A DNA stretch of 64,000 nucleotides from Opitutaceae bacterium. Its GTDB lineage: Bacteria; Verrucomicrobiota; Verrucomicrobiia; Opitutales; Opitutaceae. The notes under the pieces are model-generated. The model made no database searches. It was not told the origin of the DNA and saw only the letters and a program-made list of their open reading frames with translations. Location of the stretch: assembly GCA_046346755.1 (NCBI GenBank), contig JAXMHM010000027.1:51297-115296 (forward strand). Reading direction: 5' to 3'. Below are positions 7,388 through 21,668 of this stretch, piece by piece. A program made the translations under genes and the position numbers. Each line of letters starts with the position of its first letter. The first letter of the stretch is position 1.

Positions 7388-10300
7388 TCACCACTCGTAG
7401 ACTTCGATCAGGGCCACCCCGGTGGTTTCACCCACCCCGGATACCTTGGCCGAATAGGCGCCGGGCTGCAGGGTGCGCACAATCACGGCATCCTTGCTGC
7501 CTGCGGCCAGCGGAAACGCTCCGGCGCCCCGTCCGTCGTCGGTGTCCCAATTGTCATTGGTCGCCACCTTTTCGTCCCCTCGGTACAGCTCCAACGTGGG
7601 ATCAGCCAGCACGCCCGCGACTCCAAAGGTGCCAAGGGTGGGTCCCACCGCACGGACAAGGATGCGCCGCGGTCCATCGCCAACAATGACAAACCCGGCG
7701 ATCAGGACTTCACCGCCGGTACCCACCTGGCTGCGGGCCGACACATTCACCAGCCGCGGCCCGCCGTCGCTCGTGGGCGGATCGAGGTCATAGAGTTCCA
7801 CCAAGGCCACGCCGGGTTCGGCCGTGTCCAGCTTGGCTGAATACGCACCGGGAAACACCGGGGTGACCAGCGCCGCGTCCTTGGATCCCGGCGGGAGCGC
7901 GAAAGCTCCCACCGACAGGAAGCGCGCCGCGTCGGCCACAAGCCAGTTGTCATTGCGATCAAGCACCTGCGACGAGGAACCAATCACCTCCAACCGGGGA
8001 TTCGGAACCGTGCCAGGCACCCCAAACGCTGCCAGCGCCGGCCCGATCCCGCGGATGAGCAAACTCTTGGGGCCCTGCTGCACGGAAAAACCCACGATCA
8101 GGGTCCGATCACCCTGTCCCGCCGAGGACCGCACCGAGAGGTTTGCGAGGCGACTCGCATTCCCCGCCGGCAAGGGCGCTCCGTCGACGATCACGGTGGC
8201 ACCTTCGCTCGAAAGCGATCCCGTGGAGTCGGTCACCACCACCGTGTAGACACCGCTCTGGCTGCTCTGGAGATTGTTCAGGACCAAGGTGGAACTTGTG
8301 GCGCCCGGGATGGGTACACCGTTGTTTCTCCATTGGTAGCGCAGGGTGTCCGCGCCGGCCGCGGCCGTCGCCAGAGTCACGCTGCCACCAGCCGAAACCC
8401 GGGCCGGCCGCGGCTGCAGCGAGAAACGCAGCGGTCGGTCCACCGGCGAACCGGTGCGACGGCTGTTGTGACGGAACATGGGCCAGGCGCTGCTGGCCTC
8501 GTCGAGATCCAGCCGGATCGCATAGAGGCGGAAGTCGCCTCCACCGAAGTACAACATGCCACCATGAATCAGAGGGGACGACCTCACCTGTTGCGCGGTG
8601 TAGTAGGTGCGCCGCAGGGTGCCATCGCTGTTCAGCGCCACCAGGGTGCCGTCGAGCGTGCCAATGTAGATCGAACCGTCTGAGGCCACCGCGGGGGACG
8701 AGGTGCGAATTTCCGCCGCCACCTTGGTCGCCCAGCGCAGGGTGCCATCCGGATTGAGGGCCACGACTTTGCCGTCATAGGTGCCGAAATACACGGTGCC
8801 GTTCTCACCCAAGGCAGGGGACGAGGACGTGCCGGCTTCGAGGGCATACTGCCACTTGAGCGTGCCGTCCGGATTGACCGCAACAAACCGGCCCGTGAGG
8901 GTGCCGAGATAAAGGACTCCCGAGTTATCAATGGCGGGTGAAGTGTAAACCTCGCCACCAACATCGAGCGTCCACTTGACCACCCCGGCGGGGGTGTAAG
9001 CCCGGAGGATGCGGTCGGTCGAGGCAATGTAGACGGTGCCGTCGCGAGCCACGGTGGGCGAGGTGTAGGACTCGCCAAACAAGCCCACCAGCCACTTCCG
9101 GGTCCCGTCCGGGTTGATGGCATGCAAGGGTCCGTTTGTGCCCCGGGCATAGATTGTACCATCGGGACCGATGGCCGGCGACCCCTCGACCGCGCCGGTC
9201 ACCGTGTAACTCCACTTCACCGCTCCGTCCGCGGTGATGGACTCAACCCGGCCCGCGGAGTCGACCACAATCAGGGTCCCATCCGGCGCTGCGGCCGCCG
9301 ACGCATAGGTACCGTATCCAAACAATATATCCGACCAGAGCATTTCGCCAAGTGCGTTGACCGCGGCAACGCCCCCGAAATAGTCCACAAAGAGCGCCCC
9401 GCCCCCCGGGTGCGCCACCGGCGAGGAATAAACCGGGCCGTAGACGACCGACTGCCACTCGCTGTCGATCAGAGAAAAGATGAAGTTCCCACCCGGGCCC
9501 ACCGAATCCACCAGAAAATAATAGGTCCGACCTTCAATCGCGTCGAACGTCACCATCGGGTCGTAGATCACGCCCTGCGCGTCGTCGTCGCTGTCGAGCT
9601 CCACCAGCGTTTTCAGGCTCGTTCCCGAGTAGACTCCGAGAACACTGTCCATATCGTCACTGTAGATCGAGGCCTGGAAGCGCCGCGACTTCGGGGCCAC
9701 CCACTTGTACCAGACGGAGCGCCCGGAGGCCGTTTCAACCACCACGGGTTCGCCGCTCTCCGGGGAGGCTCCGCGTGAGTTTCCCGCCACCCGGAAACTC
9801 AGGCCGCTGACCACGGCAGCGGAGGAGAAGCTGTCATTGGTCAGAGGAATGGTGAGGTTGAGGATCACCAGCCCACCCGGAGCCGTGCGGGACTCGACCG
9901 CAATGGCGTAGGTGGTGCCTTTGATCGCGTTGATCGTCACCTGGCTGGTGACCAGGTCGCCATCATTGTCATTCGCAGCCACCTGGGTGAGCGCCGCGAT
10001 ATTGTTACCCGTGTAGACGGCCAGGCGCGTATCCACGGCGCTGCCCAGGGTGTCGATCCGGTAGGTTGCGGTGTCCGGGGCGTTCCACACCCACCAGACC
10101 GAACCGCCCCCCTCGGACGGTGCGGCGTGCTGCGGTTCATTCGACTGCCGGAGCGCGCCGAACGTGGAGCCGCGGGCGGAGACATAGCTGCCCCAGAGGA
10201 TGCCGGCCTCGCTGGTGCCGTCGTTGAAGGGGCGGGTCGTGGCGTCGAGTGCCCGGGAGACATTGAGACGGCCGCCGGTGTGGACCAGGGTTTGCAGCGC

Positions 10301-11623
10301 GGCCTTGACCTCCGCTCCGCGCAGGAGTCGGTTGACGGTGTGGGAAGGCAGATCGCTGGGAAACTGGGCGCACAGGAGGGCGACCGCCCCGCTGACGTGG
10401 GCGGCGGCAAAGGAGCTGCCCGAAACCGTGGCCAGGGGCGTCTCCGCACTCATGCCCAGGGTTCGGATGGCGACACCCGGGGCCGCCAGGTCGACATTGC
10501 CGCTTCCGTAGTTACTATTCAAAGACAATTGGTCATTGCGAGTTGACGCGGCCACGGCCACCACGTTTTCAATCAGGTGGCTCGCCGGATAGACCGGGAA
10601 AAGCGCGTTGTCGAACCCACCATTGCCGGCCGAGGCCACCACCAGGACACCGGCGTCGCGCAGCCGCTGGATCACCTCGAATTCAGCCTGCGAGTATTCG
10701 CTGAAGCCATAACTGGCGTTGATGACCTTCGCCCCCTTGGAGAGCGCATAGTGCATGCACTCGATGGCATCGGACACCGTGCCGGTGGTCGCCGAAGCCC
10801 GGAATTTCAGGGGCATAAGGCTCGCTTTCCAGGAGACCCCGGCCACTCCCAGGTTGTTGTTGCCCACGGCCCCGATGATGCCTGCCACCGCCGTGCCATG
10901 TCCCTCTCCTTGCGTCTCATTCGGATCGCCACTGCCGGGCTGGCCTTGCGGCACGAGGGCATTGATCCCGTGCACGTCGTCGATGTAGCCATTGCCATCA
11001 TCGTCCACCCCGTTGGTCTCCTTGCCGTTGCCGGATTCGCCTGGATTCGTCCACAGGTTCGCGGCGAGGTCGGGGTGGGCAAGATAAGCGCCTGAGTCAA
11101 TGATCGCCACAACCACCGACGACGAATCCGTTCGAACATCCCACGTCTCGGGGCCATCGATGTCGGCATCAAATCCTCCCTGATTCTGGCCGAGGTTGCT
11201 CAGCGCCCATTGCGCGCCCGAGCTGAACTCGGGGTCGTTCGGCACCCGGTGCGCGACGGTGAGTTGGTCCTTTTCGACGTAGGCGTAGCGTCCCGACGCA
11301 CGCAGGCGCTGGACAAAGGCCTCTGGAGACTCCCCTTCCGGCACCCGGATCACCTGCAACCCGCCGAATTGTTCATACTGACGCACCACGGCAAGGGCGC
11401 CCAGCCCGTCAACCCGCATGGCCCGGGACGGGGGGACTTCGCCACTCCGCGGCCGCGCCAGGACGACGGACGGTTGGTAATCCATGGTGCGACGAACCGG
11501 CTTTGCCGCGTGGTCGGGCGGGCGGCTCCATTCCCGCAGATCGCCCTCGCCCTGAGCGAGGACGGCGCACGCACCGAGGCTAAAGCAAAGAAAGCCAACA
11601 AATCGCATAAGCAAAAGCTTCAA
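7388..11623 (-). CDS. secreted multidomain S8 (subtilisin-family) serine protease, 1411 aa
   Basis: Signal peptide, propeptide-like region and an S8 domain with triad contexts AIIDSG (D176), HGTAVAG (H242) and SGSSFAAAH (S404). These are followed by two NDxF...GEP...SVWYxW-type beta-sandwich domains and PQQ/BamB-like propeller repeats (DGT.Y.. x about 8). Next come an Ig-like domain (LRYQWRNNG...GVYTVVV) and two C-terminal repeats. Confidence 0.9.
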   Translation of the reverse strand: MKLLLMRFVGFLCFSLGACAVLAQGEGDLREWSRPPDHAAKPVRRTMDYQPSVVLARPRSGEVPPSRAMRVDGLGALAVVRQYEQFGGLQVIRVPEGESPEAFVQRLRASGRYAYVEKDQLTVAHRVPNDPEFSSGAQWALSNLGQNQGGFDADIDGPETWDVRTDSSSVVVAIIDSGAYLAHPDLAANLWTNPGESGNGKETNGVDDDGNGYIDDVHGINALVPQGQPGSGDPNETQGEGHGTAVAGIIGAVGNNNLGVAGVSWKASLMPLKFRASATTGTVSDAIECMHYALSKGAKVINASYGFSEYSQAEFEVIQRLRDAGVLVVASAGNGGFDNALFPVYPASHLIENVVAVAASTRNDQLSLNSNYGSGNVDLAAPGVAIRTLGMSAETPLATVSGSSFAAAHVSGAVALLCAQFPSDLPSHTVNRLLRGAEVKAALQTLVHTGGRLNVSRALDATTRPFNDGTSEAGILWGSYVSARGSTFGALRQSNEPQHAAPSEGGGSVWWVWNAPDTATYRIDTLGSAVDTRLAVYTGNNIAALTQVAANDNDGDLVTSQVTINAIKGTTYAIAVESRTAPGGLVILNLTIPLTNDSFSSAAVVSGLSFRVAGNSRGASPESGEPVVVETASGRSVWYKWVAPKSRRFQASIYSDDMDSVLGVYSGTSLKTLVELDSDDDAQGVIYDPMVTFDAIEGRTYYFLVDSVGPGGNFIFSLIDSEWQSVVYGPVYSSPVAHPGGGALFVDYFGGVAAVNALGEMLWSDILFGYGTYASAAAAPDGTLIVVDSAGRVESITADGAVKWSYTVTGAVEGSPAIGPDGTIYARGTNGPLHAINPDGTRKWLVGLFGESYTSPTVARDGTVYIASTDRILRAYTPAGVVKWTLDVGGEVYTSPAIDNSGVLYLGTLTGRFVAVNPDGTLKWQYALEAGTSSSPALGENGTVYFGTYDGKVVALNPDGTLRWATKVAAEIRTSSPAVASDGSIYIGTLDGTLVALNSDGTLRRTYYTAQQVRSSPLIHGGMLYFGGGDFRLYAIRLDLDEASSAWPMFRHNSRRTGSPVDRPLRFSLQPRPARVSAGGSVTLATAAAGADTLRYQWRNNGVPIPGATSSTLVLNNLQSSQSGVYTVVVTDSTGSLSSEGATVIVDGAPLPAGNASRLANLSVRSSAGQGDRTLIVGFSVQQGPKSLLIRGIGPALAAFGVPGTVPNPRLEVIGSSSQVLDRNDNWLVADAARFLSVGAFALPPGSKDAALVTPVFPGAYSAKLDTAEPGVALVELYDLDPPTSDGGPRLVNVSARSQVGTGGEVLIAGFVIVGDGPRRILVRAVGPTLGTFGVAGVLADPTLELYRGDEKVATNDNWDTDDGRGAGAFPLAAGSKDAVIVRTLQPGAYSAKVSGVGETTGVALIEVYEW
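7391..8152 (-). repeat. tandem duplication of a 122-132 aa C-terminal domain inside the S8 protease gene
   Basis: Residues 1158-1289 and 1290-1411 align: RLxNxSxRSxxGxG...LIxGFxx...LxRxxGPxLxxFGVxG...P.LE...NDNW...GSKDA...PGAYSAK...GVALxExY. Confidence 0.7.
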
Positions 11624-11714
11624 TCGTGCAGGAAAGCCCGCGCAAGCTCGTAAACGACTGCAACTCAGCGTTCATCAACGCCGTCCACGGGGTGACCTCT
11701 CCTGCCTCGCGAGG

Positions 11715-12620
11715 TCAGGTCTGCGCTCGCACTCGATGGCGGGTTCGAAACACGCACCGGGAGCGCAAGGACTCCAGTCCAGGATGCTCGACTCCGCGGC
11801 CGGTGAAACGCACCAATCCAAACCGAACCGCCACCCCCACCAGCTGACCTCGATGCTGAAGTCCCAGCTTGAGGTGCAGCCGCTTTCGGTAGGCGTGCAC
11901 CGCCTGCGCGCTCAAGCCGATCCGATCAGCGGCCGCCTCGTCGTCGCAGCCTTCTCCGAGGATGGCCATGACGTACAGTTCAACCGGGCTGAGCAGTTTG
12001 GGCACGTGGGAGAGCGGCCCCTGGCCGTGGAGCACGTCGAGGCAGGAACCACTCCAATATGCACCCCCGCATCCAACCTGCCGGATGGCCTCCACCAGCC
12101 GGGCCACCCCATCGACCTGGGTATCGATTGCGCCGTGCGCCCCGAGCGTGCGCAGCGTGTGGATAACCATGGGAGCCGCCTGTTCGACCACCACGAGGAG
12201 GCGTTTACAGCGACCGAGCCGCCGGGACTGAGCCAGCAGATCAAGGACGTCGCCGTCCGCCAGGCTCGGCGAGGCCACCACCAAGTCCACTTCGGAGGTG
12301 GACAAACGCCGGCGCAGGCCCGCCACCTCGGTTTCCCGCCAAGACACCGCATGCGAGACACAGCTCAGCAGCGCCCGTTGCACCGCATCCGCCGCCAGGT
12401 GGTCGCTCACCGCAACCCCGACCGTGTGCACATGACTCAAGGTGGCCGGATCGCAGCACTCCGACTCCGATGGCAAGGGCGCCAGCAAGACTTCAGAGTT
12501 GGCATCCCGCTCGGACTCCAATCGAGGCCCAATTCCCCGCACTCCCGTTTCACGCGCGGCTTCAAAGGCGCGGTTTCCGTCTCTTTCACGCTCGGTTGAT
12601 CGCGGGAATGTGAGTGGCAT
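11715..12620 (-). CDS. LuxR/FixJ-type transcriptional regulator with a degenerate (pseudo-)receiver domain
   Basis: C-terminal LuxR HTH (LSPVELYVMAILGEGCDDEAAADRIGLSAQAVHAYRKRLHLKLG). The receiver-like region lacks the phospho-acceptor Asp (DLVVASPSL). The start is uncertain: the N-terminal ~60 aa is low complexity with no internal Met. Confidence 0.75.
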   Translation of the reverse strand: MPLTFPRSTERERDGNRAFEAARETGVRGIGPRLESERDANSEVLLAPLPSESECCDPATLSHVHTVGVAVSDHLAADAVQRALLSCVSHAVSWRETEVAGLRRRLSTSEVDLVVASPSLADGDVLDLLAQSRRLGRCKRLLVVVEQAAPMVIHTLRTLGAHGAIDTQVDGVARLVEAIRQVGCGGAYWSGSCLDVLHGQGPLSHVPKLLSPVELYVMAILGEGCDDEAAADRIGLSAQAVHAYRKRLHLKLGLQHRGQLVGVAVRFGLVRFTGRGVEHPGLESLRSRCVFRTRHRVRAQT

Positions 12621-12648
12621 GCGTTATTTGCCATATCATTGCGTTATT
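12621..12648. promoter_or_regulatory. direct repeat GCGTTATT-N12-GCGTTATT abutting the annotated LuxR start codon
   Basis: Exact 8-bp direct repeat at 12621-12628 and 12641-12648 (20-bp period) in a locally AT-rich patch. Confidence 0.3.
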
Positions 12649-12788
12649 CAAGCAAGGTCATTTCGCGTGGTTTTCCCTTTTTCCCGACCCTACGGGATCC
12701 CGGGAAATTGAGTCAGGGTTGGTCTCGTGGCCGTTCCCGCCCACCGGAGGAGTCCGGAACGAGTCTTTGCCGGCCTTTCGAACCCAGT

Positions 12789-12932
12789 CTAGAAGAGACG
12801 GGAGATCGATTCCTTGATCGCCGGCCAGTGGGTGAAAACGAGGTGGGTCGCATACCAGCCTGCCAAACCCGCGACAAGCCAGACCCAGGGGATCGCGCGC
12901 ATCAGGGAACGCAACGAGGAGAGGAAGTTCAT
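12789..12932 (-). CDS. 47-aa single-pass membrane peptide (candidate immunity/accessory protein)
   Basis: Hand translation: MNFLSSLRSLMRAIPWVWLVAGLAGWYATHLVFTHWPAIKESISRLF. It has one clear TM helix and lies directly downstream of the peptide pair. No SD sequence, and it follows a strong hairpin, so coding status is uncertain. Confidence 0.3.
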   Translation of the reverse strand: MNFLSSLRSLMRAIPWVWLVAGLAGWYATHLVFTHWPAIKESISRLF

Positions 12933-12943
12933 CGGCACGGGGT

Positions 12944-12972
12944 GCGCGGACGGCCGAGATCGCCGTCCGCGC
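12944..12972 (-). terminator. perfect 11-bp GC stem-loop between peptide B and the small membrane ORF (attenuator/stabiliser-type; no U-tract)
   Basis: GCGCGGACGGC-N7-GCCGTCCGCGC, starting 9 nt after the peptide B stop codon. Confidence 0.45.
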
Positions 12973-12980
12973 GACGAGGG

Positions 12981-13160
12981 TTAGTCCTTGAGTGCATAGG
13001 CCGCCGCCTCGAAGAGCGCCACCGTCCCGGCCAGGGGACCGAAGGCGACGTTCTCCAAGACGGACTTGCAGTAGGCCCCGATGAATTGTCCGAGATCGAC
13101 CACGGCGGATTCTCCTCCGGCCTGGACGAGTGCAAGGTCTGCAGCGGCGAGGTGTTTCAT
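12981..13160 (-). CDS. double-glycine-leader peptide B, 59 aa (bacteriocin/pheromone-like precursor)
   Basis: Not in the ORF track (<60 aa); hand translated as MKHLAAADLALVQAGG/ESAVVDLGQFIGAYCKSVLENVAFGPLAGTVALFEAAAYALKD. GAGGAA lies 7 nt upstream of the ATG. Two GxxxG motifs are present. Confidence 0.6.
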   Translation of the reverse strand: MKHLAAADLALVQAGGESAVVDLGQFIGAYCKSVLENVAFGPLAGTVALFEAAAYALKD

Positions 13161-13175
13161 GGGTGATTCCTCGCG

Positions 13176-13352
13176 TCAGACATTATTCCAGCCGTCCGCC
13201 ACCGCGTCTTTGAACTGACCCCAGTTGTCGTAGACGTTTTTGGCCACGTAGCCAAACGAGGCGATCGCCACCGAGATGAGGATCGCGGTGCCGCTGATCG
13301 GTTCAACGCCGCCCTGAATCGAGGCGGCTTCCTGCTGTGTCATGGTTTTCAT
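13176..13352 (-). CDS. double-glycine-leader peptide A, 58 aa (bacteriocin/pheromone-like precursor)
   Basis: Internal ATG of ORF 13176..13436: MKTMTQQEAASIQGG/VEPISGTAILISVAIASFGYVAKNVYDNWGQFKDAVADGWNNV. E at -8, I at -4, GG at -2/-1. The longer ORF-track N-terminus is Arg-rich and implausible. Confidence 0.65.
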   Translation of the reverse strand: MKTMTQQEAASIQGGVEPISGTAILISVAIASFGYVAKNVYDNWGQFKDAVADGWNNV

Positions 13353-13666
13353 ACTGTGTTCTGCTGTTGGGATGGCCCGCAGTCGCCGGTCGACCACTGC
13401 GGTCGTCCGATTGCGGGAAGGGGGGAACGGCGCCACCCAAGCGGCGCACCTCGGTGTACTTCGAAGGGAAACGCATTCGGCGTCGGCTGCGGTGACCCGA
13501 GGGTTGGTTCATGGGTTCAGGCATGAGGGGGGAGACAGGAGGCCGAAAGGCGGGGATTGTCCCAATTTATGGCCCCTTCTGCCCTTTTTAGGGCCAGGCC
13601 TTCACGGCCCGACACGTCCGATTGTCGCTTGGCCTTTTTACGGACGTCACCCAGGTTGGAGGATCT

Positions 13667-14323
13667 ATGCCCAGCGAGTCCTTTCAGATTCCCATCGCCT
13701 TCGATCTCGGCGCCACGGTCACCTTTGCGGTGACCGGTGCGATGGCCGCCCGGCGACGCGGTTACGACATCGTGGGCCTCTTCTTCCTCGCGCTCGCTTC
13801 CGGGCTCGGAGGGGGTCTGATCCGAGATGGTCTGTTTATCCAACAGGGTCCTCCGGCCTTGATGACGGATGGACGATACCTATGGGCCGTGCTGGTCGGC
13901 GGCGCCGCCGGGGTCCTCCTCGGTGAGCGACTCACCCGTCTGGCCCGCGCCATCGCCCTCATCGACGCGGTGGGCCTGGGAGCCTACGCCGTCGTGGGTG
14001 TGCAGAAATCCCTCGCCGCCGGACTCGCCGTTCCCGCCGCCATCCTGGTGGGCGTGATCAATGCCGCGGGGGGTGGAGTGCTGCGCGATGTGCTCACACG
14101 CGAGGAGCCCCTGGTGTTCAAACCGGGTCAGTTCTACGTGCTCATCGCCCTGGCCGGAGCGATCGTCTTTGTGGTGCTCTGTCAGCAAACCTACCTGACG
14201 ACCACCGCCGCCGCGCTCATCGCGATTGCCCTGACGTTTCTCCTGCGCACCCTGACCATTGTCTTCAACTGGAAGACGAACGCCCTCGACGCCCCACCTC
14301 CCTCCCCTCGTCCCCCGACCTGA
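13667..14323 (+). CDS. trimeric intracellular cation channel (TRIC/UPF0126, YadS-like) family membrane protein
   Basis: Two UPF0126 repeats with glycine-rich motifs (ASGLGGGLIRD and NAAGGGVLRD). Start set at the ATG at 13667. Confidence 0.85.
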   Translation: MPSESFQIPIAFDLGATVTFAVTGAMAARRRGYDIVGLFFLALASGLGGGLIRDGLFIQQGPPALMTDGRYLWAVLVGGAAGVLLGERLTRLARAIALIDAVGLGAYAVVGVQKSLAAGLAVPAAILVGVINAAGGGVLRDVLTREEPLVFKPGQFYVLIALAGAIVFVVLCQQTYLTTTAAALIAIALTFLLRTLTIVFNWKTNALDAPPPSPRPPT

Positions 14324-14341
14324 GTGGATGCGCCGCCCAGG

Positions 14342-15406
14342 TCAGGCGGCGGGCCGAGAGAGGGTTGCGCCGTCCAAGGCCAGCCCCCTCCTCAACGCCG
14401 CGGAAAACGTATCAGCATCGACGTTACCGCCACCCACCAGGACCACCGTGCGCCGGCCGGCAAGCAGGTCACAGCGGCCGGAAAGCACCGCGGCCAGGCC
14501 GGCCGCTCCGGCCCCTTCCACCACGGCGCGTTGGCCTTCAAACAGGCGCAGCATGGCTCGGGCGATTTCGTCCTCGGTGACCGTCACCACGGCGTCCACC
14601 TTGCCCTGCAGGACGCGAAATGAATGCTCCCCCACCCGCGCCACCGCCAGACCATCGGCGAGGGTGGGTGTCACGGTGACCGACTCGGGCGTTCCCGCCT
14701 GCCAGGCCCGCGTCAGCGAGGGCGCGCGCTCAGGCTCCACACCGATCACCCGCACCTGGGGAGCAAGCGCGCGCATGACCGTCGCCACCCCGGCCAGCAG
14801 GCCTCCACCCCCCACCGGGACCACGATGGCTTCCAGATCCGGCACCTGCTCCAGCACCTCCAACGCGACGGTCCCCTGACCCGCCATCACCTCCACATCG
14901 TCAAACGGATGCACCCACCGAGCCCCGCTTCCGCGCGCAAGAGCGAGGGCCGCCCCCGTCGCCTCGGCAAACGTCTCCCCCGCCAGCACCACGTCCGCAC
15001 CCAGCGCGCGGCAGCGTTGCACCTTCACCCGGGCCGCCGTCGTCGCCATGACCAGGGTCACCGGCACGCCCAGCGCCTTGCCATGATACGCCAGCCCAAG
15101 CGCGTGATTGCCCGCCGACGCCGCCACCACCCCCCGGGCCCGATCGGCGAGTGAGAGGCGCTCCAAGGCATGCCGCGCACCTCGCTCCTTGAAGCTCCCC
15201 GTGATCTGCAGGTCGTCGCGCTTGAGCCAGAGCGCACCGTCCGTGGGCGGGATCAGCCCCGAAGCAGCCTGACAAGGGGTGACGCGCAGGGCGCCGGCGA
15301 TCCGATGTCGCGCCGCCCGCACGTCCTCCACGCAAAGACAGGCCGGGCCAGTCGGAGGAGTCGCCGCGGGGGCGGCGGGGGATTCGGGAACAGAGGTCTG
15401 GTTCAT
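14342..15406 (-). CDS. ilvA: threonine ammonia-lyase (threonine dehydratase), short form without obvious ACT-like regulatory domain
   Basis: PLP-dependent beta-family motifs (SFKERGA, AASAGNHA, GGGGL). Start moved to the ATG at 15406, because the ORF-track start (15457) lies inside the terminator hairpin. Confidence 0.85.
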   Translation of the reverse strand: MNQTSVPESPAAPAATPPTGPACLCVEDVRAARHRIAGALRVTPCQAASGLIPPTDGALWLKRDDLQITGSFKERGARHALERLSLADRARGVVAASAGNHALGLAYHGKALGVPVTLVMATTAARVKVQRCRALGADVVLAGETFAEATGAALALARGSGARWVHPFDDVEVMAGQGTVALEVLEQVPDLEAIVVPVGGGGLLAGVATVMRALAPQVRVIGVEPERAPSLTRAWQAGTPESVTVTPTLADGLAVARVGEHSFRVLQGKVDAVVTVTEDEIARAMLRLFEGQRAVVEGAGAAGLAAVLSGRCDLLAGRRTVVLVGGGNVDADTFSAALRRGLALDGATLSRPAA

Positions 15407-15436
15407 GGGAGGAGCGAACCCGACCGGAGACGGCAC

Positions 15437-15467
15437 AAAAAAACCCACGGCCGTCACCGGCCGTGGG
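15437..15467 (-). terminator. intrinsic terminator of a leader-peptide attenuator
   Basis: Minus strand: CCCACGGCCG-GTGA-CGGCCGTGGG followed by TTTTTTT. It lies 30 nt upstream of the ilvA ATG and 32 nt downstream of the leader ORF stop. Confidence 0.8.
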
Positions 15468-15499
15468 TTGTGAGTGGAAAGTCGTTTGAAGAACGCCTC

Positions 15500-15553
15500 T
15501 CAACACGCCCGCACGCCGGCGCGAGGAATGATAATAATCATCATCATGCCCAT
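15500..15553 (-). CDS. 17-codon Ile-rich leader peptide MGMMMIIIIPRAGVRAC
   Basis: Hand translation: ATG GGC ATG ATG ATG ATT ATT ATC ATT CCT CGC GCC GGC GTG CGG GCG TGT TGA. Four consecutive Ile codons sit immediately upstream of the terminator and the Ile-pathway enzyme. Confidence 0.6.
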   Translation of the reverse strand: MGMMMIIIIPRAGVRAC

Positions 15554-15749
15554 GGCGGCGGGAATTCGGGTGGAGACGGACAACATCGACCCGTACAAGG
15601 TCGAAAACACCGCCCCCCGTCAAGTCCGGAGACGGGCCCGACCCGATCGGACCCCTGACCTTGAACAGGTTGCCACTGTGCACAAGCGGACGGGTCCACG
15701 GTTTTGAGCGTTGCCCACCGGGGTGGCTGGCTCAGGCTCGGCACCCATT

Positions 15750-17264
15750 ATGAGTCTTTCCAACCCGGCGTCGTCGGACGCCGTTGCCGCCACTCCACCC
15801 AACACGGGGGGCATGTTTGGTCACCCGACAGGCCTGGGCACCCTGTTCGTCACCGAAATGTGGGAGCGCTTCAGCTACTATGGTATGCGGGCGCTGCTCA
15901 TGTTGTTCATGGTCGCCGCCGCGGCCGATGGCGGTCTGGGCTACGATACGAAAACGGCAGCCGCCGTCTATGGCACCTACACCATGAGCGTGTACCTGCT
16001 GTCGATCCTCGGTGGATTCATCGCTGACAATTTCATCGGCGCCCGCCGCGCGGTTCTGGTCGGAGGCATCATCATTGCCGCCGGCCACTACTCGATGGCG
16101 CTCAATTCCCTGACGTCCTTTTACGCCGGCCTTGTGCTCATCGCGATGGGCACGGGACTGCTCAAACCCAACATCTCGACGATGGTGGGCAGCCTCTACT
16201 CGAGCAGCGACGAGCGTCGCGACGCCGGTTTCTCCATCTTCTACATGGGCATCAACCTGGGCGCGTTCGCCTCGCCCTTGGTCACCGGGTTTCTGGCCCA
16301 GAGCGAGTTCTGGAGAGGGTGTCTGGAGTCCTGGGGGATGGCGCGCACCAGCAGCTGGCACTGGGGATTCGCCGCGGCGGGAGTGGGCATGACCTTCGGG
16401 CTGATCGTCTACGTGCTGCAGCGCGGCCGGCTGGCCCACGTCGGCAATCCTCCCCCGAACATCCCCGGCGTCGCCCGTCCCTGGGGCAGGCTCGGTTTGG
16501 TGGCACTCGGATCGCTGGCGCTGATCGCCGCCATGCGCGCCAGTGACGAGTATCCAAAGCTCGTTTACGTTCTCTTTGCCGTTCAGGTCGCCGCCGTCCT
16601 CTACTTCGCGTTCAAGCCCGATCAGGACAGCAAGCGGCTCGCCGCCATCCTGGTGTTCTTCATTGCCGCGGAGATCTTCTGGGCTCTCTTCGAGCAGACG
16701 GGCTCCACCATCGCCCTGTTTGCGGACAAAATGACGCGGAACGAAGTTTTCGGCCACTCGTTTCCGTCGGCGTGGTGGCAGTCGGTCAACTCGGTCTGGG
16801 TCATCGCGCTCGCCCCGGTATTCGCCTTCCTTTGGATCCGGCTCGGTCACCGCCAGCCCTCCAGTCCGCTTAAGTTCGTCCTCGGGCTGCTCTTCGTCGG
16901 ACTCTCCTTTGTTTGGATGGTACCGGCGGCAAAACTCACCGTGGACGGCAAGGTCGGTCCCCAGTGGCTGATCGGTCTCTTCTTCCTGCAGACGGTCGGG
17001 GAAATGCTGCTCAGCCCGGTGGGGCTCTCGACCATGACCAAACTGGCGCCGCAGAAGCTGGTCGGGCTGGTCATGGGCATCTGGTTCCTTGCCGCCGCCC
17101 TCGGCAACAAGCTGGCCGGGGTGCTCGCCAGCGGCTACTCGCCGGCCAACGCGGACGAACTTGCCAGCTTCTTCCTGCGCCAGGCCCTCTGGGTCGGCGT
17201 CGCCACCGCGGTGCTGCTGGCGCTGGTGCCCTGGGTCAAGCGCCTCATGGGCGGCGTGCGCTGA
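15750..17264 (+). CDS. POT/PTR2-family proton-dependent di-/tripeptide transporter
   Basis: GHPxGLxxLFxTEMWERFSYYGMRALL signature and FYxxINxGA motif; about 14 TM helices. Start set at the ATG at 15750. Confidence 0.9.
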   Translation: MSLSNPASSDAVAATPPNTGGMFGHPTGLGTLFVTEMWERFSYYGMRALLMLFMVAAAADGGLGYDTKTAAAVYGTYTMSVYLLSILGGFIADNFIGARRAVLVGGIIIAAGHYSMALNSLTSFYAGLVLIAMGTGLLKPNISTMVGSLYSSSDERRDAGFSIFYMGINLGAFASPLVTGFLAQSEFWRGCLESWGMARTSSWHWGFAAAGVGMTFGLIVYVLQRGRLAHVGNPPPNIPGVARPWGRLGLVALGSLALIAAMRASDEYPKLVYVLFAVQVAAVLYFAFKPDQDSKRLAAILVFFIAAEIFWALFEQTGSTIALFADKMTRNEVFGHSFPSAWWQSVNSVWVIALAPVFAFLWIRLGHRQPSSPLKFVLGLLFVGLSFVWMVPAAKLTVDGKVGPQWLIGLFFLQTVGEMLLSPVGLSTMTKLAPQKLVGLVMGIWFLAAALGNKLAGVLASGYSPANADELASFFLRQALWVGVATAVLLALVPWVKRLMGGVR

Positions 17265-17293
17265 ACCGGCCCGTCGACCCTCCCTTCACTCCC

Positions 17294-17911
17294 ATGCCGA
17301 CGCGCGCCTGGTTTTCGACCTACCTCTACTGCGAGCCGCTTCAGGCGCGCGGACTCGACCGGCTCAACCTCGAGCTGGCCGATGAGTGCGCCCGGCTGCG
17401 CGACTTCGACGACGCCGGCCGCCGGTGGTCCGCCAAGAACTACCCGGGTGGATACACGAGCTACGCCTCGATGAACGCGCTGCACGGCTTCTCCAGCACG
17501 TTCGCGACGCTGGAACGCAAGCTGACGCGGCACGTCAAGACCTTCGCGCGGTCGCTCGACATGGACCTTCGCGGCCGCACAGTCACCATGACCGACTGCT
17601 GGGTGAACATCATGCCCCCGACGGCGGCGCACTCGATGCACCTGCACCCGCTCTCGTTCATCAGCGGCACCTACTATGTGGTCACACCACCCGGATGCCC
17701 GGGCCTCAAGTTCGAAGACCCGCGGCTCTCCAGCCTGATGGCCGCGCCTCCGAAACGGGCCGACGCCCGCGACGCCAACCGCACGCACGTCACCTACCCC
17801 GCCGTGGCCGGCAACGTGATCCTGTTTGAAAGCTGGCTGCGCCACGAGGTCGCTCAGAACCGGGTCGAAGGCGAGCGCATCAGCATCAGTTTCAACTACG
17901 CCTGGTCCTGA
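17294..17911 (+). CDS. 2OG-Fe(II) oxygenase-like protein (TIGR02466-type)
   Basis: The C-terminal half of ORF 16913..17911 starts at the ATG at 17294. It has a HxH...H-type jelly-roll pattern (AHSMHLHP ... ESWLRHEV ... ISISFNY). Confidence 0.7.
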   Translation: MPTRAWFSTYLYCEPLQARGLDRLNLELADECARLRDFDDAGRRWSAKNYPGGYTSYASMNALHGFSSTFATLERKLTRHVKTFARSLDMDLRGRTVTMTDCWVNIMPPTAAHSMHLHPLSFISGTYYVVTPPGCPGLKFEDPRLSSLMAAPPKRADARDANRTHVTYPAVAGNVILFESWLRHEVAQNRVEGERISISFNYAWS

Positions 17912-17926
17912 GCCGCCCCGCCGACG

Positions 17927-18838
17927 TCAGCTGACCATCAGGATCACCGGCAACGCCACCGCCGACAGCAAGGTGCTGGCCACGATCGCACTCGCCGCCA
18001 CCGATTCGTCCCCCCCGAGCTGTCGGACCATGGTGTACGACACCGCCGCCGTGGGGCACGCCATGAGGAGAAGCACCACGCGCGTTTCCCCTGCATCGAG
18101 CTGCAGCAGACGCGCCACGCCGAATCCCACCAGGGGGGAAACCAGGGTCTTGAAAAGCGCCGCCAGGAACACCGCCCGCCGGTTGCCCCGGATCGGAGTG
18201 GACACCAGCGCCGAGCCAATGCAGAGCAGCGCGAGGGGAACGGCCATGCGGGACAGCAACGACAGGGTGAGATCAAGCGGTTCCCACACCGGCCAATTGC
18301 AGTAGTAGAAAATGCCCCCGCCAATGCTGGCCAGGATGATGGGATTGCGAAGCAACTCCCGCGCAATGAGCACGCCCATGCGATGAGCCTCGGTTTTCCG
18401 GCTGGCGAGGAGCATCGCCACAGCCGCTCCGTTGTAGAGCAGGAGCATCGGGGCCATGGCCAGCACGGCCGCGGTTCGGGGAATGCCGGGCAGCGTCAGC
18501 ACAATCGGAAGTCCGACAAACGTCAGGTTGCCGCGGAAAGCCGCCTGCACCCAGGTGCCCACGCCCTCGTTCTTGACTCCAATCAGTCGCGCGGCGAGCC
18601 AGGCCAGAGCCAGACTGATCAGCGTCGCCACCACCAAACCTCCCAGCAAACGCCCCGTTTCCGCTTCTCCGTGTTCGGCATGGGTGAGACTGACCCAGAC
18701 CAGGATCGGCAGGCCCACCCAGTAGGTCAGCTTGTTCACACCGGCCATGAAACCGGGGGCAAAAAAGCCGCCGCGCTCCAGCGCCACGCCCAGGGCGAGG
18801 ATGAGAAAGAAGGGGGCAAGGAGCGTGAAGAGCTGCAC
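17927..18838 (-). CDS. AEC (auxin efflux carrier) family transporter
   Basis: Polytopic membrane protein with an AEC-like two-half architecture. Start inferred at the GTG at 18838 (..QLFTLLAPFFLILALG..) to avoid overlap with the upstream GT2 gene; the ORF-track start is 18952. Confidence 0.75.
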   Translation of the reverse strand: MQLFTLLAPFFLILALGVALERGGFFAPGFMAGVNKLTYWVGLPILVWVSLTHAEHGEAETGRLLGGLVVATLISLALAWLAARLIGVKNEGVGTWVQAAFRGNLTFVGLPIVLTLPGIPRTAAVLAMAPMLLLYNGAAVAMLLASRKTEAHRMGVLIARELLRNPIILASIGGGIFYYCNWPVWEPLDLTLSLLSRMAVPLALLCIGSALVSTPIRGNRRAVFLAALFKTLVSPLVGFGVARLLQLDAGETRVVLLLMACPTAAVSYTMVRQLGGDESVAASAIVASTLLSAVALPVILMVS

Positions 18839-18879
18839 GAAGGTGGGTCGGGATGGGCTCGGACGAAATCTGTGTCGGG

Positions 18880-19740
18880 TCAGGCGCGCCAGTCTCCGGG
18901 ACGATAAAACAGGGGGCCGCCCCACTTTCTCCGCCAGAGGAGATAAGGCCACCAGGCGAGCCGGTACATCCGCTGGTCGCGGCGGCCGGGCAGGAGCGCG
19001 CCGAGCGGGTGTCCCGACTCATCGCGCCAATAACGGAGCGTCTGCTCCCACCAATTTCTCCCGCAATAGCCCAGGTGCCTCAACTGCATCCGGCGAATCT
19101 CGGCGAAGATGTCGCGCCGCAGGCGCGAGGACTTGGTGGCGGGATGTTCCCGCGATTCCGCCAGGAACACCGGCAGGTGCCGGAAACGCGCGCCCCGGCT
19201 CGCGAGGCGGAGCCAGAATTCGTAGTCGAAGGTGGCGTCAAAGGAAGGATCGAACCAGCCGTGACGCTCGTGCATGCGCCGCCGCCAGAACGTCGCCGGC
19301 TGGCAGAGAAAGCAGTGCTGCACGAGGTGGCGAAACTCGTACGGGAGCGTCGGATACTCCCGGGTCCGCTGTCCGGCGGAATCGACAAACCAGGCCCGTC
19401 CATAGAGCACGTCGAGTTCGGGATCCGCCTCGAACTCCCGCGCCACCGCCTCGAGGGCGCCGGGCAGCAGCACGTCGTCGCTGTTCAGGTAGCCGCAGAT
19501 CTCGCCCTTCAGGGATTGCAGTCCGGAATTGATGGCTGCGACCTGGCCGCCGTCGGGCCCGCTCCGCCATCGCAGCGGCCGTGGCCAGGTTCTCAGCACC
19601 TCGACCGATCCGTCGCGCGAACCGCCGTCCCAGACCCCATGGTTCACCTCCACGCCGGACTGGCTCTGCACGCTTTCCAGACAGGCGGGAAGGTAAGGAG
19701 CCTGGTTGAACGAGGGAGTGACGAGGGCGAAGCCGGTCAT
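18880..19740 (-). CDS. family 2 glycosyltransferase
   Basis: N-terminus VTPSFNQAPYLPACLESVQSQ ... DGGSRDGS ... DD motif typical of GT2. Start at the ATG at 19740. Confidence 0.85.
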   Translation of the reverse strand: MTGFALVTPSFNQAPYLPACLESVQSQSGVEVNHGVWDGGSRDGSVEVLRTWPRPLRWRSGPDGGQVAAINSGLQSLKGEICGYLNSDDVLLPGALEAVAREFEADPELDVLYGRAWFVDSAGQRTREYPTLPYEFRHLVQHCFLCQPATFWRRRMHERHGWFDPSFDATFDYEFWLRLASRGARFRHLPVFLAESREHPATKSSRLRRDIFAEIRRMQLRHLGYCGRNWWEQTLRYWRDESGHPLGALLPGRRDQRMYRLAWWPYLLWRRKWGGPLFYRPGDWRA

Positions 19741-19792
19741 GCGTCGAGGAGATCCAGCATGGCGGTGAAAGGCAGGGCGGCGAGATCCGGCC

Positions 19793-19823
19793 AAAAAAAA
19801 CTCCGCCCCGGCGAGGGGCGGAG
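19793..19823 (-). terminator. rho-independent terminator downstream of the methyltransferase gene
   Basis: Minus strand: CTCCGCCCC-tcgcc-GGGGCGGAG followed by T8. Confidence 0.85.
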
Positions 19824-19862
19824 TTGAAAGGACCGGATGCCACCGGCACCCGGAACACCGCC

Positions 19863-21449
19863 TTAGGCGGGCTGCAGGAAGGACAGACGGATGAGTTGCT
19901 CCACCACGCCACCGATGCGGGGGGCGAGAACTGCCTTCAGGCGGTTGTCGTCGGCAATCGGCTGACCGTTTTCCTGGACGCTGAAGAGACCGGCGCGGAC
20001 CTTTTCGGCCATGGCTTCGATGATCTTGGCCGGATCGCGCGTGCCATCGAGCAGAGACAGCACATGCCGCGAGAACGAGTCGACCTTGACCGAGACATGG
20101 CGCAGGTTCGTGACGTGGCGGCCGTCGTTCAGCGCTTGGTAGCGCATGTAAGCCGGAGCCTTGAGCAGGGGTTCATTTCCCACCGCCAGAGTCGGATGCG
20201 GGACCGCCAGCACATCGATCAGGCCCTTGCTGTAAAGGAGGAGCAGCTGTTGGGAGACAATCGCCTCTTCACGCTGGTCGATGATCGCCTCACGGATGGC
20301 CGAAGCGCCGCCAGAAAGCTTCGCGCGGACTTCCGACATCAGCTTACCAAACGAGATGTGGTTCGGCATCGACTTCTGGAGCGACACCAGCATGACCTTC
20401 ACCAGAGCGCTGTCGGAGGAGAACGTGACGCCATTGGCCATGCGGAACTCTTCCTTTTCGCCAGGGGCGAGGCTCGGCTCGGGTTTGACCGCGCTGGCAA
20501 CCGCGCCGAAGTAGAAGTCGCGCATCAGGGCGGCATCGATGTTCCGCTTGATCTTGGCGTCCTTCTTCACAAGCAGCGTCATGCGGAACATGCGATTCCG
20601 GAGGAAATCCATGTACTGCTCCATCTGCACGATGTTGTTGCCGACCTTGGCCAGGGTTTCCTGGACCTGCGGAGGGAAATTGCCGGCGAGCATGGCGCTC
20701 AGTTCCGGTTCACCGAGGTACTGGAGGTTGTGACGGGCCGCGGCGGTGGCGAATTCGTAGAAATAGAACGCCTTGTTCTCCTCTTCGAGGAAGTCGTGAC
20801 GGAGGTATCCGTCCTGCCAGCCCTGCATCGCCGTCAGTTCGTTCTTCAGGAACTGGCCGTAGGGATTGTTCTCGGTCGGCACGGAATCGACGAGGAACTT
20901 GACCAACGCACGGGACTGCCCGATCCGCTGCTGGATGTCGGGGAACTGCGCCGTGTGGAAGAGCATCATGTCGCGGATCATGCCGCGCATGTGCCAGCCC
21001 GGAAGGGCGTTGTAGCTGATGTAGGCGACGCCGTTGTCCGTGAGGAGGGTGTCGCAGATATTGAGGATCCGCTCGCGGACATCCTCCGGAACCCAGCTGA
21101 AAATGCCGTGAACGATGATGTAGTCGAACTTCTGGCCCTGGGAATCGAAATTGCGGATGTCCTGGTGGGTCAGCGTGACGTTGGTCAGCCCTGCGCCCGC
21201 AATGGCCTTCTGGCCGCGTTCGACCTGCTTGGCCGACAGATCAATGCCGACGAACGTGCTGCCCGGGTAGTTCTGGGCAAAGGGGATCAAATTCGCGCCG
21301 TCCGCACAGCCGAGTTCCAGGATCCGGCACTTCTCCGGCTCCGTTGGGGTGAGCCCGAAAAGCCTTCCCATCGTCGCCAGCTTTACCGGATGGGTTTGCG
21401 GGAAGGAAGAACTTGGGTACGGAACTTCGTCGTATGTGTTAATGGACAT
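19863..21449 (-). CDS. class I SAM-dependent methyltransferase with C-terminal methyltransferase-regulatory-type domain
   Basis: ILELGCADGANL (SAM motif I) near the N-terminus; the long C-terminal domain resembles the predicted methyltransferase regulatory domain family. Confidence 0.8.
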   Translation of the reverse strand: MSINTYDEVPYPSSSFPQTHPVKLATMGRLFGLTPTEPEKCRILELGCADGANLIPFAQNYPGSTFVGIDLSAKQVERGQKAIAGAGLTNVTLTHQDIRNFDSQGQKFDYIIVHGIFSWVPEDVRERILNICDTLLTDNGVAYISYNALPGWHMRGMIRDMMLFHTAQFPDIQQRIGQSRALVKFLVDSVPTENNPYGQFLKNELTAMQGWQDGYLRHDFLEEENKAFYFYEFATAAARHNLQYLGEPELSAMLAGNFPPQVQETLAKVGNNIVQMEQYMDFLRNRMFRMTLLVKKDAKIKRNIDAALMRDFYFGAVASAVKPEPSLAPGEKEEFRMANGVTFSSDSALVKVMLVSLQKSMPNHISFGKLMSEVRAKLSGGASAIREAIIDQREEAIVSQQLLLLYSKGLIDVLAVPHPTLAVGNEPLLKAPAYMRYQALNDGRHVTNLRHVSVKVDSFSRHVLSLLDGTRDPAKIIEAMAEKVRAGLFSVQENGQPIADDNRLKAVLAPRIGGVVEQLIRLSFLQPA

Positions 21450-21668
21450 TCCTAATGACCTACCCAGAAGCGCCGCCCAAATACCAGAAAAAACTCTCGC
21501 ACCCTACATTTTGGGGAAGCCGCCGGATCCCGCGCTGGTGCCGGTCTCGGGACACCGCAAGGGAATTATCGCCATTCCGCGAATTTATCGAAGGTGACGC
21601 GAGGGAACACCGAGGCACCCACCGGGGTCGTGTCGCACCGGGCGGCGGTGCCCGGCGGCAGTTCCCCG

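Follow-up and report, generated by a model that had tools for sequence, protein, structure and literature searches.

A conserved isoleucine-codon leader and intrinsic terminator upstream of an ACT-less threonine ammonia-lyase gene in Opitutaceae: a likely transcription attenuator in Verrucomicrobiota

We analyzed a 64,000-nucleotide stretch of DNA from an Opitutaceae bacterium (assembly GCA_046346755.1, contig JAXMHM010000027.1, positions 51,297 to 115,296; the whole stretch is hereafter called the window), in which the gene for an IlvA-like threonine ammonia-lyase is preceded by a short open reading frame (ORF) with four isoleucine codons in a row and by an intrinsic terminator. A sequence-only reading had taken this arrangement for a classical attenuator, and upon inspection we found its coordinates for the ORF, the isoleucine codons, the stop codon, the spacers, the stem, the loop, the T7 tract and the gene's ATG all correct on the minus strand. 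The features at the locus, in window coordinates, are as follows.

15618..15623, minus strand: putative -35 box TTGACG of a predicted leader promoter, kept in the comparison loci L001, L081 and L161
15500..15586, minus strand: leader ORF, long version, 28 codons plus stop, MLSVSTRIPAAMGMMMIIIIPRAGVRAC; its upstream ATG is kept in L001, L081 and L161
15553-15551 (start) to the stop codon, minus strand: leader ORF, short version, 17 codons, from an internal ATG
15554..15562, minus strand: region 1 (CCCGCCGCC), predicted anti-antiterminator strand, from RNAfold minimum free energy (MFE) structures
15527..15538, minus strand: proposed regulatory codons ATT ATT ATC ATT, four isoleucines in a row
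15509..15521, minus strand: region 2 (CGCCGGCGUGCGG), predicted antiterminator strand in the 3' part of the leader ORF, with region 1 or the terminator 5' arm as partner
15502-15500, minus strand: leader stop codon TGA
15470..15506, minus strand: nested hairpin inside the antiterminator helix, across the leader stop codon, predicted by folding
15437..15469, minus strand: intrinsic terminator (regions 3 and 4), 12-bp stem, loop GUGA and U7, from a terminator scan and folding
15467-15458, 15457-15454 and 15453-15444, minus strand: terminator 5' stem CCCACGGCCG, loop GTGA and 3' stem CGGCCGTGGG
14342..15406, minus strand: threonine ammonia-lyase (IlvA-like) gene, 354 amino acids, from profile matches

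The terminator stem consists of ten G/C-rich pairs, lengthened to 12 bp by AA/TT (15469-15442), with the T7 tract directly 3' of it (15443-15437); spacers of 32 nt and 30 nt separate it from the leader stop codon and, counted from T7, from the ilvA ATG at 15406. Detected by the terminator scan, the hairpin folds alone at -25.3 kcal/mol and is identical in L001, L081 and L161. It should be active on the minus strand only because the opposite strand lacks a T-run. The upstream neighbor, a POT-family peptide transporter gene (TIGR00924) on the plus strand with its ATG near 15750, is divergent, and an assignment of the hairpin as the terminator of that gene was for this reason ruled out. The two candidate leader starts share a frame, with the ATG at 15586-15584 lengthening the ORF that begins at 15553 to 28 codons, so the isoleucine codons are read from either.

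These elements are rare in the window. The leader tract is the sole run of at least four isoleucines in its six-frame translation, for which trinucleotide frequencies give an expectation of 0.04, and the leader hairpin is one of just three terminators with a stem of at least 11 bp and a T-run. The other two sit at gene 3' ends, indicating that this organism uses canonical intrinsic terminators. Codon choice sets the leader apart as well: five large genes of the window use ATC, ATT and ATA 136, 25 and 1 times, whereas the leader has four ATT and one ATC, in agreement with the earlier remark that ATT codons stand here in a region otherwise favoring G or C at third positions. Folding of a 201-nt region around the leader gave z = -3.6 against dinucleotide shuffles. 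Thus, the observation of the leader is correct and far beyond chance.

The 354-residue product matches only the PALP domain in Pfam, with no match to an ACT domain, as the sequence-only reading had supposed. Among NCBIfam models it is best matched by those for threonine ammonia-lyase, NF005600 (positions 9-329 of 408) and TIGR01127 (ilvA_1Cterm; positions 7-303 of 380, E = 4.6e-100). The TIGR01127 score of 335.3 bits falls under the curated cut-off of 378.75 bits, as the NF005600 score does under its own, because both models are matched over the catalytic part only; positions 304-380 of TIGR01127, and with them the C-terminal ACT-like domain that this model requires, are unmatched. The pyridoxal phosphate motifs SFK, SAGNH and GGGGL are present, the nearest PDB chains are biosynthetic and catabolic threonine dehydratases, and an identical protein carries the database name "threonine/serine dehydratase". 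A six-frame translation puts the start of this gene at a GTG (15457) within the loop of the hairpin; relatives keep the ATG at 15406, and the proposed correction of the gene start to that position is upheld. Threonine ammonia-lyase commits threonine to isoleucine synthesis. The downstream gene thus belongs to the pathway of the amino acid that the leader codons specify, a match that supports an attenuator.

The comparative evidence comes from 160 loci encoding relatives of the enzyme, in genomes and metagenomes, and nine more obtained by exact-protein look-up. An isoleucine-rich mini-ORF and a strong terminator lie just upstream of the gene in every one of the 33 loci with an ACT-less enzyme at 55% identity or more and enough upstream DNA. 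Overall, the arrangement precedes ilvA orthologues in more than 40 Verrucomicrobiota loci (Opitutaceae, Pedosphaera parvula and metagenomes), so that the conservation upstream of orthologues that had been proposed as a check was indeed found and, by sequence comparison, two or more classes of the phylum have the family before ilvA. The leaders fall into three types and two intermediates.

Type W: the window, L001, L081 and L161; leader MLSVSTRIPAAMGMMMIIIIPRAGVRAC; terminator CCCACGGCCG / CGGCCGTGGG; ACT-less enzyme
Type O: about 30 Opitutaceae loci, including the isolate Horticoccus sp.; leader MSLRAIIIAAIIMIRLESGRRRVTA; terminator GAAGCCCTGAGC / GCTCAGGGCTTT; ACT-less enzyme
Type P (Pedosphaera-type): Pedosphaera parvula Ellin514 (class Pedosphaerae), Verrucomicrobiota sgz303538 and nine metagenome contigs; leader MRNITVQPIMIMAIIIGSFSGQG; terminator GCCCTGAG / CTCAGGGC; ACT-bearing enzyme
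Intermediate L169: leader MFHFYAAIPAMMIAIIAPSGQGIAACRC; terminator as in type O; ACT-bearing enzyme
Intermediate L168: leader MLCTRIGMMIIMIHRAGRGA; terminator W-like; ACT-less enzyme

Among the 36 distinct leader ORFs, most have 23-28 codons (three read 39-48 codons from an upstream ATG), each holds 3-9 isoleucine codons, and the distance from stop codon to terminator is 28-36 nt in all but one (L110, 21 nt). Isoleucine identity is kept in these leaders while the third position varies (120 ATT, 42 ATC and 3 ATA), with the rare ATT codon preferred; as judged from the alignments, the constraint at these positions is one of codon identity. The peptide N-terminus varies freely; in the TCAGGGCGGCGGCG segment, by contrast, none of the three codon positions varies, which argues for a constraint at the RNA level there. 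Compared with its 72-75% relatives, the window's leader has 88.6% DNA identity, against 70-72% for the coding sequence and 64-66% for the upstream spacer. A covariance model trained on 19 sequences of type O matches type P and L169 with E values between 6e-11 and 4e-4 and L168 at 1.6e-4; for type W it reaches E of about 0.1, over its full length and exactly at the leader position. This model gave no match, and inspection found no isoleucine ORF, upstream of ACT-bearing orthologues that share about 50% identity and come from Planctomycetota, other Verrucomicrobiota and some Opitutaceae.

Some of these leaderless genes, the ACT-bearing ilvA paralogues or orthologues of certain Opitutaceae/Opitutia, share a motif of their own, CATCTTTGTTGC(A/G)CG, about 45 nt upstream of the start (L023, about 2955-2975; L031, about 2035-2055; L036, about 2955-2975).

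Folding gave the alternative structures on which an attenuator would depend. For the untranslated leader, both the MFE and the centroid structures predict pairing of CCCGCCGCC (15562-15554) with GGCG.UGCGGG and a formed terminator, at -39.8 kcal/mol, and this modeled pairing of regions 1 and 2 would belong to an extended imperfect hairpin (15590-15483) whose tip holds the isoleucine codons. The RNAalifold consensus for type O likewise contains a 1:2 helix (CGCCGC:GCGGCG, with one-sided changes only), the nested hairpin and the terminator. A different fold emerges when only the RNA 3' of a stalled ribosome is considered, with the A site on isoleucine codons 1-3 and the RNA ending before the terminator 3' arm. 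Here RNAfold finds a 12-pair helix of 15521-15509 with 15467-15455 enclosing the nested hairpin 15506-15470, at -30.8 kcal/mol, reproducing an antiterminator that had previously been folded by hand; this energy was attained by 8 of 500 shuffles, and by 2 of 500 together with the pairing. With the ribosome placed at the UGA codon, region 2 of the window leader is covered and the terminator alone forms, as the earlier reading had anticipated. Mutually exclusive terminator and antiterminator folds, the subject of another suggested check, are thus both obtained by computation. We dropped a constrained folding with a ribosome footprint, since it allowed pairs across the ribosome and was physically unrealistic.

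In each of 11 representatives, which cover every leader type, the MFE fold has this same antiterminator topology, region 2 pairing with the terminator 5' arm around a nested hairpin, and between 0 and 37 of 500 dinucleotide shuffles reach the observed energies. The paired sequences change with the type: in types O and P, UCAGGGC pairs with GCCCUGA, some P members pair CUCGGGGC with (A/G)CCCUGAG, and type W pairs GCCGGCGUGCGG with CCCACGGCCGG. By this comparison, region 2 and the terminator 5' arm differ together between types, which amounts to co-variation at the level of the helix. Within type O, the nested hairpin shows compensatory changes, from A-U to G-C in eight sequences and from U-A to C-G in two.

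Which ATG opens the leader bears on how a ribosome could reach it. In all leader types, the first in-frame ATG is preceded by a TTGACA, TCGACA or TGGACA box at a distance of 30-41 nt (mode 34-35); in the window leader this ATG, 15586, lies 31 nt after the -35 box. The ORF and isoleucine codons described by the sequence-only reading are real, but judging from the conserved sequences the start is more likely at 15586, with 28 codons, than at 15553, with 17. At the expected -10 site, the 39 leader loci examined (15591-15623 in the window) show T-rich motifs such as TTCTCTT, TTTTGG and CCTTGT instead of TATAAT. With standard sigma-70 spacing, we infer that the transcript would start 0-6 nt before the leader ATG, and the leader ORF, having no Shine-Dalgarno sequence, would therefore be leaderless or nearly so. 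The T-rich -10 region and the nearby ATG hint at an unusual promoter or at leaderless translation in these Verrucomicrobiota.

Together, these elements suggest the following mechanism. Transcription would begin shortly upstream of the 28-codon (or 17-codon) leader ORF. When charged isoleucine tRNA is scarce, a ribosome would stall at the four isoleucine codons (15538-15527) and hold region 1 away, freeing region 2 (15521-15509) to pair with the terminator 5' arm (15467-15455) once that is made; the resulting antiterminator, enclosing the nested hairpin, would let RNA polymerase read through into ilvA. When isoleucine is plentiful, the ribosome would reach the UGA codon (15502-15500) and cover most or all of region 2, and in the absence of translation region 1 (15562-15554) would sequester it. 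In both of these states the 12-bp hairpin and U7 would form and terminate transcription. If transcription starts near 15590, the terminated leader RNA would be about 150 nt long rather than the 100-130 nt first estimated.

We regard an isoleucine-responsive, ribosome-mediated (leader-peptide) transcription attenuator of the single ACT-less threonine ammonia-lyase gene as the likely explanation of the locus, supported by both the conservation and the folds, and hold it with good confidence. Several points weigh against it. The support is entirely computational; the leader promoter has no recognizable -10 element, and neither ATG (15586 or 15553) is preceded by a Shine-Dalgarno sequence. A simple RNAduplex test of region 2 against the terminator arm gave no significance for the window type, with 106 and 336 of 1000 shuffles, since GC-rich shuffled sequences pair readily; in this type, significance is reached by the full fold that includes the nested hairpin and not by the simple duplex. 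Regions 2, 3 and 4 are nearly invariant within each type, so the covariation of the antiterminator rests on comparing types, between which the alignment is uncertain. The type O stop codon lies 18-24 nt beyond the UCAGGGC core, which a terminating ribosome would not cover, and the isoleucine-replete state of that type is less clear-cut, depending on ribosome release and 1:2 pairing. Two further type O leaders (L010 and L020) have just two isoleucine codons. Methionine codons accompany the isoleucine run with no apparent regulatory logic for methionine: nearly all leaders have internal ones, up to four, in or next to the run (only L099 and L105 have none), and ATTATGAT or ATTATTATG is invariant in the Opitutaceae type.

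Other explanations read the same features differently. The terminator could be conditional yet answer to another sensor, such as a protein, a small RNA or a metabolite-binding fold, the isoleucine codons then being incidental or a by-product of AU-rich structure; the lack of a Shine-Dalgarno sequence would fit this, as would the self-complementary AUGAUGAU...AUUAUCAU tract, which forms a hairpin tip, and the nucleotide-level conservation of regions 1 and 2. It sits poorly, however, with the 36 distinct leaders, in which reading frame, ATG, stop codon and isoleucine run are kept as isoleucine third positions vary between ATT and ATC, and with the constant distance from stop codon to terminator; the encoded amino acid is also the end product of the regulated pathway, and no Rfam riboswitch or T-box matched even at E up to 10. 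We consider such a sensor quite improbable. Much the same holds for a role of the mini-ORF and hairpin in ilvA translation or mRNA stability, or of the leader as an independent small gene for a hydrophobic peptide or a trans-acting small RNA, which we judge unlikely. A strong hairpin with U7 and a mutually exclusive fold is what termination control requires, and the peptides match no Pfam or NCBIfam family and differ widely between types, save for the isoleucine run and the parts that encode RNA helices, even though they are hydrophobic with a basic tail and the terminator stands just 5-30 nt from the ilvA start in some loci. For Sinorhizobium trpL, trans functions of attenuator-derived RNAs and leader peptides are documented (PMC6614838, PMC7298713); this is a precedent for an independent role, which would nevertheless add to attenuation and not replace it.

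Coincidence, meaning a non-functional remnant or a chance AT-rich stretch beside a stray hairpin in a divergent intergenic region, has the least probability of all. Spurious ORFs are many in high-GC genomes, and the plus strand of the tract also reads MIIIIIM, but with only 0.04 such runs expected per window, three strong terminators in 64 kb, a leader more conserved than the coding sequence and more than 40 loci across two classes, the conservation data effectively refute it.

The plus-strand reading just mentioned spans 15531-15551, inside a plus-strand ORF at 15474-15707, and arises because ATG, ATT and ATC codons are nearly palindromic, so that the reverse complement of the methionine/isoleucine tract again gives M-I-I-I-I-I-M; it is probably meaningless. 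The same near-palindromic codons give the tract a small AU hairpin in RNA, to which the methionine codons, one base away from isoleucine codons, contribute. Public gene calls include a hypothetical ORF of 73 amino acids that runs over the leader on the other strand (1155-1376 in L161 and 1090-1311 in L163, minus strand of those loci), which is probably spurious.

The relation of the leader to allosteric control is less simple than first proposed. The sequence-only reading had attenuation replacing allosteric feedback, and in Opitutaceae the attenuator may indeed now be the sole isoleucine-specific control. Type P and L169 leaders, however, precede enzymes of 404-430 residues with an ACT domain, and two type P orthologues tested directly pass the TIGR01127 cut-off (425 and 416 bits). 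Since the same leader family precedes ACT-bearing IlvA, the attenuator appears older than the loss of the ACT domain and, from this distribution, did not arise as a replacement for allostery. A further proposal, possible but which we hold only tentatively, is that the isoleucine sensor is a ribosome initiating on a leaderless or near-leaderless ORF, with its AUG about 0-6 nt from the 5' end and no Shine-Dalgarno sequence, and that in the ACT-less Opitutaceae this attenuator provides the sole isoleucine-specific feedback on entry into the pathway. If true, classical attenuation and tight coupling of transcription with translation would be ancestral in Verrucomicrobiota and could stand in for allosteric control.

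In its surroundings, the ilvA gene is monocistronic, with a convergent downstream gene (PF03458, Gly_transporter), and the three-gene synteny is the same in a 72%-identical relative. A scan of the ten neighboring ORFs (7388-21455) found no further genes for branched-chain amino acids. The lineage is Opitutaceae, class Opitutia, Verrucomicrobiota, and the best genomic relative (94%) is an Opitutaceae metagenome-assembled genome. Between the putative leader promoter and the transporter gene (15640-15720), a block GGCAACGCTCAAAACC ... TTGTGCAC ... GGCAACCTGTTC..GGTCAGGGG is kept in L001, L081 and L161; it is far better conserved than the surrounding spacer, has no Rfam match and may represent the transporter gene's promoter or 5' region. 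Unrelated to the leader, a minus-strand gene at 7388-11623 encodes a 1411-residue protein with a subtilase S8 domain, PQQ-like beta-propeller repeats and immunoglobulin domains.

An attenuator at this locus would extend classical leader-peptide attenuation to the PVC group (Verrucomicrobiota), beyond the Proteobacteria, where most earlier examples lie, and the cases in Actinobacteria and Firmicutes (PMC2965389, PMC1262725). It would imply, for these bacteria, a coupling of transcription and translation tight enough that RNA folding can be steered by a ribosome. The several sequence types offer a natural experiment in which the same predicted switch logic is kept while terminator and antiterminator differ together, and an ACT-less threonine deaminase would be paired with purely RNA-based isoleucine feedback; Pedosphaera parvula Ellin514 and Horticoccus sp. 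are cultured strains. For annotation, the analysis sets the gene start at 15406 and flags the 73-residue ORF call over the leader (L161).

Searches for a known family were negative. Against Rfam 15 at E up to 10, the window's sole match was PrrF, at 20.5 bits compared with a gathering score of 90; we rejected this identity, as the match is sub-threshold and reflects the terminator hairpin. The leaders of L034, L165 and L161 had no Rfam match, and three leader peptides had none in Pfam or NCBIfam. In the literature searched, we found neither a leader-peptide attenuator in Verrucomicrobia, which bears out the view of this lineage as an unexpected one, nor an isoleucine-only leader dedicated to ilvA, though an earlier in silico prediction is possible. 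The leaders thus form a new, well-conserved family within a familiar class of switches, one so far undescribed for this phylum.

Classical leader-peptide attenuation is also described in Bacteroidetes. For Firmicutes, examples include the leucine-rich ilv-leu leader peptide of Staphylococcus aureus (PMC5794164), the Listeria ilv leader (PMC5864092) and Bacillus his leaders (PMC2965389); Naville and Gautheret wrote that, prior to their Firmicutes cases, they knew of demonstrated systems of this kind only from Proteobacteria and Actinobacteria (PMC2965389). The present family resembles these as an instance of classical attenuation outside Proteobacteria, each an isolated, lineage-specific family, and differs from them in sequence, in phylum and in either the regulatory amino acid or the operon. 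Closer in setting are the ilvBNC leader and ilvB-II upstream ORF of Corynebacterium and other Actinobacteria, in which a short ORF with branched-chain codons lies at a terminator hairpin (PMC1262725, PMC11857589, PMC10272879). As here, the ORF overlaps or precedes the terminator, the host is high-GC and non-proteobacterial, and the first prediction came from comparative genomics, whereas those leaders precede ilvB, carry mixed isoleucine, valine and leucine codons instead of isoleucine codons before ilvA, and have no sequence relationship to the present one. Codon substitution in the Streptomyces ilvB leader had no effect (PMC1262725).

The E. coli and Salmonella ilvGMEDA leader (ilvL) is a classical attenuator that controls ilvA among other genes. 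In both ilvL and the window leader, an isoleucine run is followed by proline (...VVVIIIPPCGA in E. coli and ...MMMIIIIPRAGV here), alternative helices 1:2, 2:3 and 3:4 can be drawn, and a rho-independent terminator stands just upstream of the structural genes; threonine deaminase expression under the control of tRNA charging, proposed here, would be a further likeness. The two share no detectable sequence homology, and the window leader has no Rfam or NCBIfam match. Its regulatory codons are essentially isoleucine only, whereas ilvL combines isoleucine, valine and leucine, and it would control one gene rather than a five-gene operon. In addition, the antiterminator predicted here encloses a nested hairpin, the leader ORF apparently starts within a few nucleotides of the transcript 5' end and has no Shine-Dalgarno sequence, and the host belongs to Verrucomicrobiota instead of Proteobacteria. 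By analogy, then, E. coli ilvL is the nearest functional counterpart of the Opitutaceae leader, which would follow the logic of classical attenuators such as trp, his, thr, leu and ilv.

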